Positions 8,894 to 30,532 of a DNA stretch of 64,000 bases are shown one piece after another. The stretch is from the NCBI GenBank assembly GCA_009784615.1, contig WRBJ01000005.1, forward strand, positions 4,775 to 68,774, given 5' to 3'. This DNA comes from Defluviitaleaceae bacterium. GTDB lineage: Bacteria; Bacillota; Clostridia; Lachnospirales; WRAX01. The position numbers and the translations under genes are program-made. The notes beneath the pieces were generated by a model. It was not told where the DNA came from. It made no database searches and saw nothing but the letters and a program-made list of their open reading frames with translations. Within the stretch, counting starts at the first letter, position 1; every line of letters begins with the position of its first letter.

Positions 8894-8899
8894 TAAGAG

Positions 8900-9076
8900 T
8901 TATAAAAGACGGCTTGCTAGGTTTGCACGCTGTTTTTCTTTTTCGGCTTCTAAAAAAATATCGTCTAATGAGATTATAATGCAGTTTTCGCACATACCCA
9001 ACGAATTTATTTCTATAGTGCTAAAACAGCATTGGTAGTGCGTGTTGTAGACGCAAAATGCATTTTCGCATTGCAT
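8900..9076 (-). CDS. 58-aa Cys-rich small protein (MQCENAFCVYNTHYQCCFSTIEINSLGMCENC...), DUF1540-like Cys spacing
   Basis: ATG at 9076 is preceded by GAAAGGTGG plus 10 nt. C-x4-C-x7-CC-x11-C-x2-C pattern. The track ORF 8900-9220 is an upstream extension through the leader. Confidence 0.55.
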   Translation of the reverse strand: MQCENAFCVYNTHYQCCFSTIEINSLGMCENCIIISLDDIFLEAEKEKQRANLASRLL

Positions 9077-9262
9077 AAAAAAATACCACCTTTCAGGTCT
9101 TTTTAAATGTTGAAAGATTTGCTTGACAAATAAGACCTGATGTGATAATATACACTCAAGCCTCCTTTGGGCTGAAGATGCGCTTGTTTGGGTTCTGACT
9201 CTGCAAATAGTGTGACCCAAACAAGCGTTTTTCTTATGACTTCAGCCTTTGAACACCCCTCG
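9077..9262 (-). ncRNA. copy 1 of a conserved structured leader of about 190 nt (unclassified cis-regulatory RNA candidate)
   Basis: Homologous to 29995-30190. On the minus strand, P1 is GGCTGAAG/CTTCAGCC (9240-9247 with 9170-9177). P2 is a 13-bp stem (9181-9193 with 9215-9227). Alternative stems involve 9132-9140. Confidence 0.6.
9123..9151 (+). promoter_or_regulatory. consensus promoter antisense to leader copy 1 (TTGACA-17 bp-TAATAT, TG-extended)
   Basis: TTGACA at 9123-9128, 17-bp spacer, TGaTAATAT with the -10 at 9146-9151. The same element is conserved in copy 2 on the opposite strand. Confidence 0.5.
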
Positions 9263-9268
9263 ACACTG

Positions 9269-9297
9269 ATTATATCTTATTGGTTGGTGTTTGTCAA
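9269..9297 (-). promoter_or_regulatory. consensus sigma-A-type promoter of leader copy 1 (TTGACA-17 bp-TATAAT) with upstream A-tract
   Basis: The minus strand reads AAAAAAATCCCTTGACA-17-TATAAT (plus coordinates: -35 at 9292-9297, -10 at 9269-9274). Confidence 0.65.
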
Positions 9298-9339
9298 GGG
9301 ATTTTTTTGGTTTGGTGGAGTTTTTTGTCAAATTGGCAG

Positions 9340-9367
9340 GTAGGGACACAATATATTGTGTCCCTAC
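9340..9367. repeat. perfect 28-bp palindrome (GTAGGGACACAATATATTGTGTCCCTAC)
   Basis: An 11-bp stem plus a self-complementary ATATAT centre, lying between the dacB-like stop (9376) and module copy 1. No adjacent U-tract on either strand. Confidence 0.8.
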
Positions 9368-9375
9368 GGTTATAT

Positions 9376-24280: not shown

Positions 24281-24685
24281 ATGATTACATTTAATAATTC
24301 GCTGATAACGGGCATTAAAGAAGTTGATGAACAACATATGGAATTGGTTGAAAGAATTAACCATTTATTTACCTTTGTTGACGGCAAAGTTACGGCGCAA
24401 GAATTAGAGGATACCTTTACATTTTTGGTTCAATATGTTGCGGTGCATTTTGAAACCGAAGATAGAATTATGCAGGAAATAAATTACCCCGATATGGACA
24501 AGCATATAGAACAACACGAGCTGCTTATAAATAAAGCGGTGAATTTAAGAGAACAGCTTGATACACACGGATATGAGCTTCATTCGATAATAGAACTGCG
24601 TGGATTTTTGTTAAAATGGATTGTTGACCATATAAAAGGTAGCGACTTAGCTTTTGCAGAGCATTATCATAAAGTCAAAGGATGA
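24281..24685 (+). CDS. bacteriohemerythrin (hemerythrin-like metal-binding protein), paralog 1
   Basis: VDEQH, HFETED, H-x3-H (HIEQHE) and WIVDHIKGSD motifs. Confidence 0.88.
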   Translation: MITFNNSLITGIKEVDEQHMELVERINHLFTFVDGKVTAQELEDTFTFLVQYVAVHFETEDRIMQEINYPDMDKHIEQHELLINKAVNLREQLDTHGYELHSIIELRGFLLKWIVDHIKGSDLAFAEHYHKVKG

Positions 24686-24701
24686 AGGTGGGGAATGAAA
24701 G

Positions 24702-25115
24702 TTGCTTGAAATCGATGATTCTATGTTAACTGGTATTATAGGTGTGGATGAACAACATATGGCTTTAGTAGAAAAAGTGAACCATTTGTTTACTTTGGCG
24801 GCTGATAAGGCTATGGAACAAGAATTAAAAGATACATTTGAATTTTTAGTTCAATATATAATAACGCATTTTGACACAGAAGAAAAGTTGATGAAAATGA
24901 TTGGCTACCCCAATTATCAAGAGCATTTGCAACAGCATCAAGAGCTAATTGAAAAGGCGATGGCTTTAAAAGTTTATTTGGACGAAAAACAATATGAATA
25001 TCAGTCGATTTTAGAAATACGTGATTTTTTAGTAGATTGGGTTAAAAATCATATAAAAGGTAGCGATATGGATATAGGTAAATATTACCATAAAATTAAA
25101 AAGCAAGTATTATAA
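24702..25115 (+). CDS. bacteriohemerythrin, paralog 2 (TTG start)
   Basis: VDEQH, HFDTEE, HLQQHQ and WVKNHIKGSD motifs. GGTGGGG RBS upstream. Confidence 0.85.
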   Translation: MLEIDDSMLTGIIGVDEQHMALVEKVNHLFTLAADKAMEQELKDTFEFLVQYIITHFDTEEKLMKMIGYPNYQEHLQQHQELIEKAMALKVYLDEKQYEYQSILEIRDFLVDWVKNHIKGSDMDIGKYYHKIKKQVL

Positions 25116-25251
25116 AGAAAGGAAGAAGTGTTTATAAACATAGTTGCGTGCGTTTTTGATGGAATGGATTGTAAGACCACATCAAAGGTAAAGACTTGGT
25201 CTTTGCTAGGTGCTATCGTTCGATTGAAAAATGAAGGGAAGGGGGGATATT

Positions 25252-25659
25252 ATGCAAGAAATTTTAAACAATTTGATAACAGGTATTGATATTGTTGATG
25301 AGCAACATAAAATGCTTTTTGTTAGATTGGATGAGCTTATAAATTTGGGTTGTGGCAACGAAAATATTGCCGCTTTAAAGAGTGCGTTAGAATTTTTAGA
25401 AAAATATGCTATGATGCATTTTGAAACAGAAGAATGTTTAATGCGTCAAGCCTGCTACCCAAAATTTGAAGCCCATAAGGAATTGCATAGGACGTTTATT
25501 GATAAAAAGAATGAATTAAAAAAGCTATTAGTTGATGATGGCTATAAAAACAAGTTGTTGATTGAGCTTCGTTCGTTTTTAGTATCTTGGCTAATAAACC
25601 ATATTAAAAATGAAGATATGGTGTTTGGAGAGTTTTGGAAAGAACAAAATGAAAAATAA
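25252..25659 (+). CDS. bacteriohemerythrin, paralog 3
   Basis: VDEQH, HFETEE, HKELH and WLINHIKNED motifs. A GGGGGG-rich RBS precedes ATG 25252. Confidence 0.85.
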   Translation: MQEILNNLITGIDIVDEQHKMLFVRLDELINLGCGNENIAALKSALEFLEKYAMMHFETEECLMRQACYPKFEAHKELHRTFIDKKNELKKLLVDDGYKNKLLIELRSFLVSWLINHIKNEDMVFGEFWKEQNEK

Positions 25660-29844: not shown

Positions 29845-29959
29845 AACAACCGCTTCCTTAATGGGTTTGACCCCTTTTTATAAGGAAGTATTTACATTTT
29901 ATGGTACTTTTATACATTAATCAGTTTGACAAGATTATACAAAAAATAAAAAAAAGCCC

Positions 29960-29988
29960 TTGACAAGAGCCAAACAATAGTATACAAT
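29960..29988 (+). promoter_or_regulatory. sigma-A-type promoter of leader copy 2 (TTGACA-17 bp-TACAAT) with upstream A-tract
   Basis: AAAAAAAAGCCCTTGACA at 29960-29965, 17-bp spacer, TACAAT at 29983-29988. Confidence 0.65.
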
Positions 29989-29994
29989 CAATAT

Positions 29995-30190
29995 CGGGAG
30001 TATTTCAAAGGACTTGGTGCATAAGCAATATGCTTGTTGGGTGAAACACAACGTCAAAGTACCCACCCAACAAGCAACCACTAAGTCCTCAGACCTAAGG
30101 TGATATTATCACATTTAGGTCTACTTGTCAAGCACATCTTTAGCGATGTGCCAAAAACAAAAATCTGACCTGAAAGGTGGTATTTTTTTA
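29995..30190 (+). ncRNA. copy 2 of the conserved structured leader (unclassified cis-regulatory RNA candidate)
   Basis: P1 pairs 30010-30019 with 30079-30088. P2 pairs 30032-30043 with 30064-30075. Alternative stems are 30091-30098/30115-30122 and 30114-30121/30167-30174. The SD lies at 30173-30180. Confidence 0.6.
30103..30131 (-). promoter_or_regulatory. consensus promoter antisense to leader copy 2 (TTGACA-17 bp-TAATAT)
   Basis: The minus strand reads TTGACA (30131-30126), a 17-bp spacer, then TGaTAATAT (-10 at 30108-30103). Same architecture as 9123-9151. Confidence 0.5.
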
Positions 30191-30532
30191 ATGAACAGGG
30201 ATTTTAGGTACATGCAAGATGTTGGCACAAGGACAATTTGCAAACAAAACATGATGTTTTTGCCGCAAGATTTAACCGACCATTTGCGGCTGGTAGAAGG
30301 CTCTTTGTTTTCTTTATTACCTATGGGTAGCATAGTGATATTGCGGTTGTTAAAGGAAGATGACGACAAACATCAACATTATTTTACAACATCTATGGAT
30401 TTGTTAGGCAGAATTGAAATACCCAAAGTATTAAGAGAAGCTATGGGTTGGGATTGTAAGGAAAGATATGACATATCTGTTTATTATGTTGATGACGAGA
30501 TGGTTATTTTACAAAAATATGTTAATAAATAA
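30191..30532 (+). CDS. 113-aa protein with a C-terminal SpoVT/AbrB-type swapped-hairpin domain and a possible second degenerate copy at the N-terminus
   Basis: LGRIEIPKVLREAMGWDCKERYDISVYYVDDEMVILQK matches the AbrB/MazE/SpoVT pattern. ATG 30191 is preceded by GAAAGGTGG. The track ORF from 30125 runs through the leader. Confidence 0.6.
   Translation: MNRDFRYMQDVGTRTICKQNMMFLPQDLTDHLRLVEGSLFSLLPMGSIVILRLLKEDDDKHQHYFTTSMDLLGRIEIPKVLREAMGWDCKERYDISVYYVDDEMVILQKYVNK

Follow-up and report, generated by a model that had tools for sequence, protein, structure and literature searches.

Why should a consensus promoter stand inside the untranslated leader of a gene and point away from that gene? The question is raised by a window of 64,000 nucleotides (nt), the whole stretch of DNA analysed here, from the chromosome of an uncultured Defluviitaleaceae bacterium, a termite-gut Firmicute. 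The window holds two copies of a cassette of about 290 base pairs (bp), each with a sense promoter, a leader of about 200 bases and the Shine-Dalgarno (SD) sequence of a small cargo gene; the two cassettes are 69% identical overall in a global alignment. An earlier note on this DNA had claimed that each leader also carries, on the opposite strand, a promoter TTGACA-17-TG-TAATAT, which would produce an antisense RNA fully complementary to the leader. Our best explanation is that this promoter is active and that the antisense RNA switches the leader into a fold that hides the SD. We hold this explanation, as a whole, with moderate confidence, giving it about an even chance; within it, promoter activity is the likeliest step and attenuation the least certain.

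We identified the claimed promoter in both leaders (9123-9151 plus; 30131-30103 minus), on the strand opposite the cargo gene in each case and at a frequency above chance. Both sites score 10/12 and have a TG extension that also forms the TRTG -16 motif, an element typical of Gram-positive promoters (as defined in PMC5036317). Both copies have the elements of a sigma-A promoter of low-GC Gram-positives, with a 6/6 match at the -35, a spacer of 17 bp, TGTG-n, and TAATAT with its A2 and T6. Sites that combine a perfect -35 with a TG-extended -10 number four in the 64-kb window against 0.32 expected, and the antisense sites are two of the four; strong promoter-like sites as a broader class number 13 in the window, compared with 3.2 in Markov simulations. 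The two leaders are the sole places in the window where strong promoters stand face to face; their -10 boxes are separated by 117 and 114 bp. Judged by sequence, all the determinants of a strong sigma-A promoter are present in the antisense blocks, and the antisense promoter in each leader is likely to be active.

We additionally identified the same type of sequence in phages. The motif TATTATCACAT-N10-TTGTCAAG gave 37 matches in viral contigs, 29 of them unique. An SD with a start codon and an open reading frame (ORF) of at least 40 amino acids (aa) followed within 200 nt, mostly at 18-64 nt, in promoter orientation for 19 of the 29, as against 1 of 29 in the reversed orientation, indicating that sequences of exactly this type act as promoters in phage genomes of low GC. 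The form CTTGACAA-N10-ATGTGATAATA recurs as a promoter in many low-GC phage contigs (L049-L085), several of them jumbo-sized and some with two occurrences per contig, typically 18-64 nt before an SD and ATG.

The blocks that form the antisense promoter are among the best conserved parts of the cassette. The four longest perfect blocks between copy 1 and copy 2 are the 23-nt SD block (GACCTGAAAGGTGGTATTTTTTT), which within the window occurs in the two leaders only, ATATTATCACA (11-12 nt), TTGTCAAGCA (10 nt) and CCCTTGACAA (10 nt). The last of these is the sense -35; ATATTATCACA corresponds to the antisense -10 with its TRTG, and TTGTCAAGCA to the antisense -35. The two antisense blocks are separated by 10 nt that differ between the copies and whose best alignment requires one insertion and one deletion. 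With this compensating pair the spacer remains 17 bp long while the stem register moves by 1 nt, an outcome that is predicted by a promoter constraint and not by a constraint on the RNA only, in what is a single comparison. We found contigs (L002-L007) that are 100% identical over the copy-2 leader, and blastn matches of 100% identity to both leaders; as they are identical to the window, L002-L007 carry no polymorphism information.

For the sense strand, we found that the full leaders fold far better than shuffled sequences (z -4.5 for copy 1 and -5.8 for copy 2), and that the predicted minimum-energy fold of both leaders consists of a long P1/P2 hairpin followed by a hairpin P3, in which a region 1 pairs with a region 2. 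P1 shows four compensatory pair changes between the copies. P3 of copy 1 includes three G-U pairs and is far weaker on the antisense strand (-6.5 kcal/mol, compared with -16.3 kcal/mol on the sense strand), indicating that the sense fold itself is under selection. When region 1 is omitted, region 2, which contains TATCAC...AGGTC, pairs with the invariant SD block (region 3) at -18.5 and -26.1 kcal/mol (z -4.3 and -3.9), with TATCAC against GGUGGUA and the AGGTC part against GACCUG, and the resulting hairpin ends at U7-AUG. We then masked the stretch of the leader with which the antisense RNA would pair; the modelled chance of an unpaired SD was 0.20 instead of 0.56 for copy 1, and 0.10 instead of 0.21 for copy 2. 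As modelled, the leader has mutually exclusive folds of the kind found in countertranscript attenuation. A leader peptide was considered and rejected: short ORFs run from region 1 in both copies, but their frames differ across the conserved block and they share no SD.

The same pairings would suit an explanation in which the blocks are conserved for the sense RNA alone, with TATCAC...AGGTC as the anti-SD strand, ATATTA as the loop of P3, and TTGTCAAGCA/ATCTTT as a protein, ligand or tertiary-contact site of a riboswitch or protein-binding attenuator; the likeness to a promoter would then be a silent by-product of A+T-rich sequence. The pairing of region 2 with the SD block, the complementarity of ATCTTT to AAAGGU and the selection on P3 of copy 1 as sense RNA are all in its favour. 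It leaves unexplained the invariant loop ATAT, the CA/AT around TATCAC that completes the TRTG, the exact TTGACA and the kept 17 bp, and it must treat as accidental a match of a quality expected 0.32 times per window and a motif found identically, in promoter orientation, in phages. Moreover, the leader matches no Rfam family: the whole window gave no hits at gathering thresholds, and relaxed searches of both regions gave sub-threshold noise. For TTGTCAAGCA, a pseudoknot or other partner in the sense RNA was sought, and only an unconvincing 5-nt match to a P2 strand was found. The earlier note was prepared to abandon the promoter if sense-strand structure fully accounted for the conserved blocks; such structure accounts for TATCAC and leaves aside the loop ATAT, the bases that complete the TRTG and the exact TTGACA. 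We consider conservation for the sense RNA alone possible, if somewhat unlikely. If the promoter is silent, the leaders would be a caution that a likeness to consensus promoters can arise opposite an anti-SD strand or an A+T-rich loop.

Returning to an active antisense promoter, we infer that transcription would start about 7 nt after the -10, at 9158 (plus) and 30096 (minus), and the ends of the RNA are likewise predicted. The full complementarity that had been claimed holds as a prediction, as RNA made from this promoter would match the 5' ~100 nt of the sense leader completely; it would cover P1/P2 completely and reach neither the SD nor the start codon. The shortest form in copy 1 would have a 5' tail complementary to region 1 and the 3' strand of P1, and a P2' hairpin that together with TTTTTCTT resembles an intrinsic terminator; alternative stops for this RNA are the T-run at 9302-9308 and the hairpin at 9340-9367. 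In copy 2, P2' is followed by a poor tail, and the first good stop is the hairpin 29971-29955 with its T8. The earlier note had placed the stop at the complement of the sense A-tract. The sequences in question are present in both copies (CAAGGGATTTTTTT in copy 1; GGCTCTTGTCAAGGGCT, with hairpin and T8 at 29971-29948 minus, in copy 2), and the hairpin in copy 2 only. An anti-SD string, claimed for the 5' end of each antisense RNA, lies inside the predicted RNA in copy 1 (CCTCCTTT, 9161-9168), and the CACCTT of 'CACCTTAGGTC' lies upstream of the predicted start in copy 2.

We also considered whether the antisense strand encodes a toxin. It has hydrophobic ORFs, 49-51 codons long, which span the sense promoter (9188-9343 plus; ~30082-29935 minus) and have '...VKGFF...' in common. 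They share no start or SD (GAGGA-4-GTG in copy 2, and no SD in copy 1), and most codon differences between them change the amino acid. Their hydrophobicity follows from the T-rich strand, and the idea was rejected.

Combining these elements, we propose the following mechanism. A sigma-A promoter in the leader would face the sense promoter, the -10 boxes of the two lying about 115 bp apart. Transcription from it would begin in the P3 loop and yield a short cis-antisense RNA able to pair without a mismatch with P1/P2 and the lower half of region 1. In a leader free of antisense RNA, region 1 would pair with region 2 in P3, leaving the SD block comparatively open. When the antisense RNA meets the nascent leader, first contact would probably be made by the complementary P2 loops of about 20 nt and by the antisense 5' tail. 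With region 1 occupied, region 2 (TATCAC...AGGTC) would be free to pair in vivo with the invariant SD block (GACCUGAAAGGUGGUA). The hairpin of regions 2 and 3 ends directly at U7-AUG, so that it would hide the SD and may also terminate transcription; as the SD lies within the hairpin and the hairpin has a long interior, occlusion of the SD may outweigh termination. Head-on transcription from both promoters would add interference. The expected direction of the effect is a lowered expression of the cargo gene when the antisense RNA is present.

Several points weigh against this mechanism. In copy 2 the modelled accessibility of the SD changes only modestly, and an interior of 40-50 nt, as in the region 2:3 hairpin, is not usual in intrinsic terminators. 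Of region 1, the antisense RNA as predicted would cover only part: about 8 of 12 nt for copy 1, and about 5 of 15 nt for copy 2. Its stops are built differently in the two copies, which makes the 3' end uncertain and means that this part of the design is not conserved. With just two diverged copies, and with the other contigs 100% identical, the argument from conservation amounts to one comparison. Finally, two of the conserved sequences have a second explanation: TATCAC, part of the -10 block, is separately explained as the anti-SD strand of the sense RNA, and ATCTTT, beside the -35 block, can pair with the AAAGGU of the SD.

Table 1. Coordinates of the cassette features in the window, and of analogous cassettes on other contigs
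Feature	Position	Strand	Remarks
Window			chromosomal DNA of an uncultured Defluviitaleaceae bacterium; metagenome-assembled genome (MAG) protein FWE33_02330
Copy 1 sense promoter, TTGACA-17-TATAAT	9269..9297	minus	12/12
Copy 1 sense leader	9077..9262	minus	P1 + P2 long hairpin; ATG at 9076
Copy 1 region 1	9164..9153	minus	
Copy 1 region 2	9147..9132	minus	anti-SD
Copy 1 region 3	9099..9077	minus	SD block, terminal U7
Copy 1 cargo	8900..9076	minus	58-aa Cys-rich protein
Copy 1 antisense -35, TTGACA	9123..9128	plus	inside perfectly conserved sense block TTGTCAAGCA (9129..9120)
Copy 1 antisense TRTG and -10	9141..9151	plus	TGTG 9141-9144, one spacer base, TAATAT 9146-9151; corresponds to conserved sense block ATATTATCACA
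Copy 1 predicted antisense RNA, shortest form	9158..9235	plus	~78 nt; 5' tail, P2' hairpin 9180-9227, TTTTTCTT 9228-9235
CAAGGGATTTTTTT	9295..9308	plus	complement of sense -35 + A-tract; no good hairpin before the T-run in copy 1
Perfect 12-bp hairpin, then GGTTATATTT	9340..9367	plus	terminator-like; possible distal stop of copy 1 antisense RNA
Copy 2 sense promoter, TTGACA-17-TACAAT	29960..29988	plus	11/12
Copy 2 sense leader	29995..30190	plus	P1, P2; ATG at 30191
Copy 2 region 1	30091-30105	plus	
Copy 2 region 2	30107-30122	plus	
Copy 2 region 3	30167-30189	plus	SD block
Copy 2 cargo	30191..30532	plus	113-aa protein, C-terminal AbrB-type domain
Copy 2 antisense -35, TTGACA	30126..30131	minus	
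Copy 2 antisense TRTG and -10	30103..30113	minus	TRTG 30113-30110, TAATAT 30108-30103
Copy 2 predicted antisense RNA	29948..30096	minus	~150 nt; across P1/P2 to hairpin 29971-29955 + T8 (29955-29948)
Analogous cassette	L017:2160-2312		before integrase
Analogous cassette	L025:56-198		before aminotransferase

An active antisense promoter might instead act mainly at the level of DNA, either by head-on interference or, in copy 2, by driving the 194-aa gene on the minus strand (29844-29260). In favour of this explanation, the two near-consensus promoters face each other, 114-117 bp apart at their -10 boxes, the gene in copy 2 lies about 250 nt downstream in the antisense direction, and interference between the convergent promoters PQ and PX has been documented for pCF10 (PMC3181467). 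In contrast, copy 1 has no plus-strand gene downstream of its antisense promoter, the next gene being convergent, and in copy 2 the hairpin with T8 precedes the 194-aa gene. Both copies moreover conserve the region 1/2/3 switch, for which interference alone would give no explanation. We regard an effect mainly on DNA as distinctly unlikely.

We also identified three YTTGACAAR boxes in each cassette: one is the sense -35, another lies 34 bp upstream of that -35, and the third, inverted, is the antisense -35. These could be operators of a DNA-binding regulator, possibly of the cargo proteins themselves, with the antisense -35 as one such site. Of 15 such boxes in the window, where 4.2 would be expected, 6 fall within the two cassettes; the upstream box TTTGACAA (9325-9332 minus; 29925-29932 plus) has identical 34-bp spacing in both copies and no -10 partner; and the cargo of copy 2 carries an AbrB-type DNA-binding domain. 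Operators do not explain, however, the conserved TRTG and the -10 at exactly 17 bp, and TTGACAA is near-palindromic for trivial reasons. Operators would in any case be compatible with a regulated antisense promoter, and are not strictly an alternative to one. Taken as the explanation of the antisense blocks, they appear very improbable to us; for the upstream TTTGACAA box, a role as operator and one within an UP-like region are both conceivable.

The cassettes stand in a chromosomal setting, with housekeeping genes of infB-rbfA-truB-ribF type and sporulation genes as neighbours. Samples that contain the MAG include ERZ27257297, SRR5215140, SRR10512952 and JGI 3300010369. The cargo of copy 1 is Cys-rich and charged, with the pattern CxxxxxCxYN...C...GMCxxC and no hydrophobic stretch. 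About 200 small Cys-rich proteins of 55-80 aa make up its family, for which no Pfam or NCBIfam match was found. Its homologues (e.g. L090:1357-1605 and L092:1191-1382) are encoded divergently from XRE- or RHH-type regulators, near SSB and in prophage-like regions, and so sit like an early prophage gene. Upstream of these homologues we sought the leader, and found plain promoters and short untranslated regions instead. For the cargo of copy 2, the evidence of an AbrB-type domain at the C-terminus is weak but consistent (TIGR01439, E=4e-4; PDB AbrB N-domain, E=3e-4), and the N-terminal half is uncharacterised. A word-based homologue search with this protein found only itself, it gave no SymE_toxin match at E<=10, and its single-sequence AlphaFold model was unusable (predicted local distance difference test, pLDDT, 34). 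Neither cargo looks like a type I toxin, in agreement with the view of the earlier note that the cargo proteins are not toxin-like. Upstream of the copy-2 region lie three adjacent genes for hemerythrin-domain proteins (134, 137 and 135-142 aa; 24281-25659; Pfam marks, on the identical contig L002).

For copy 1, the origin of the cassette can be traced through the neighbouring Ham1-like gene. Relatives reached by way of this gene were mostly without synteny, and one locus, on L041, is syntenic and has an empty site. In this nearest relative found (L041:1100-1200; Ham1-like protein 74% identical), the genes for the Ham1-like protein and PBP5 abut, with an overlap of 4 nt, indicating that the copy-1 cassette (~480 bp, 8894-9375) is an insertion between convergent housekeeping genes.

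We searched for further copies of the cassette. Neither blastn of the leaders against phages and plasmids, nor blastn and nhmmer across ~0.8 Mb of fetched loci, gave a match or a further copy; patterns of the SD block gave nothing relevant in viral sequences, and a 20-nt SD block gave one chance match, in a Nitrospirae MAG, among genome contigs. A metagenome scan with an 18-mer gave 28 matches, mostly rhodanese coding sequence, of which only those in L017 and L025 are leader-like. These two loci share a unit in which a P3-like hairpin carries, within its 3' strand, an antisense TTGCCA-18-TGgTATAAT promoter (11/12 plus TG). About 75 nt downstream of that promoter follows a canonical terminator for the antisense transcript; the region 1/2/3 logic is the same, with a region 2:3 hairpin that ends at U6-AUG, and so is the 22-nt SD block. 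Between the terminator and the ATG, L017 and L025 agree at about 90%, and beyond these limits they are unrelated; the pair might represent a regulatory unit in repeated use or the duplication of an att site. Compared with the window, similarity beyond the SD block, which was the search bait, is confined to promoter-like elements, and by analogy the unit supports the design rather than being a proven homologue.

A broader proposal is that the whole cassette of ~290 bp (upstream box, sense promoter, P1/P2, region 1/2/3 switch with antisense promoter, SD-U7) is a portable unit placed before unrelated small genes by the bacterium or by mobile elements. This proposal is tentative, and we think it unlikely as it stands. 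If true, the cassette would be a chromosomal, modular, antisense-gated and possibly bistable switch, of a class that to our knowledge has not been described outside the control of plasmid replication and conjugation. The cassette itself carries two promoters, a switch and an SD in ~290 bp, a compact design that could serve again as a synthetic part.

Which known systems does this arrangement resemble? Since the antisense RNA would start in the loop of P3 and cover part of region 1 together with P1/P2, the closest analogue is countertranscript-driven attenuation, as in pT181, pIP501 and pCF10, and not a type I toxin-antitoxin locus, to which the earlier note had likened the layout. Type I loci such as hok/sok and symE/symR are small, multi-copy and intergenic, with a strong antisense promoter in the 5' part of the mRNA and a structured 5' untranslated region that can hide the SD; SymE is moreover an AbrB-fold protein of a size similar to the cargo of copy 2. 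The likeness fails at the toxin: neither cargo is a small hydrophobic peptide, one belonging to a soluble, Cys-rich, phage-associated family and the other being an AbrB-type domain protein outside the reach of SymE_toxin, and the antisense RNA would leave the SD and start codon uncovered. In IS10, the promoters pIN and pOUT stand face to face, and RNA-OUT, an antisense RNA that is short, stable and folded as a hairpin, is directed at the mRNA, RNA-IN, at its 5' end. RNA-OUT differs in covering the SD and AUG and in its transposase context, no transposase having been found here.

In pT181 and pIP501, the antisense RNA binds the nascent 5' leader and removes the preemptor strand, allowing a hairpin with a U-run to form (PMC5703833). 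As with RNAI/II of pT181, RNAIII of pIP501 and pAMbeta1, the antisense promoter here lies within the leader and faces the sense promoter, and the target is the 5' leader and not the SD. As in pT181 and pIP501, there are two exclusive leader folds, here predicted, and antisense binding would favour a hairpin with a U-run just before the gene (PMC5703833). The differences are that our locus is chromosomal and its cargo is not a replication initiator, that it has neither sequence homology to these plasmids nor an Rfam hit, that its terminator-like hairpin is long in the interior and includes the SD, which may make translational occlusion the main effect, and that the predicted antisense RNA covers the preemptor strand only partly.

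For pCF10 of Enterococcus faecalis, the convergent promoters of prgQ/prgX, with Anti-Q, give transcripts that overlap by 223 nt and interfere mutually (PMC3181467). The cassettes are alike in their convergent promoters and in a predicted overlap within the range of ~100-220 nt, and interference, which adds to the effect in pCF10 (PMC3181467), would do so here. In contrast to pCF10, the overlap here would be about 100 nt, there is no pheromone circuit, and the antisense transcript of copy 1 has no repressor gene downstream. In Shigella flexneri, the cis-antisense RNA RnaG, made from a convergent promoter in the 5' region of icsA, causes premature termination of the sense mRNA (PMC2879508). The convergent promoter inside the 5' region, which in the cassettes too would produce a cis-antisense RNA, is a point of likeness; RnaG differs in its length of 450 nt, its Gram-negative virulence plasmid and its other leader architecture.

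If the antisense promoter is active, the cassettes would be cases of chromosomal antisense-triggered leader switching on small phage-derived genes in an uncultured termite-gut Firmicute. As far as we know, such switching has been worked out almost only for the control of plasmid copy number and conjugation. The duplicated leader would then be controlled by an RNA encoded within itself and not by a metabolite, which would argue against its being a riboswitch candidate. What is plausibly new here, on the sequence evidence, is plasmid-type antisense attenuation, a known kind of control, in a chromosomal and modular setting.

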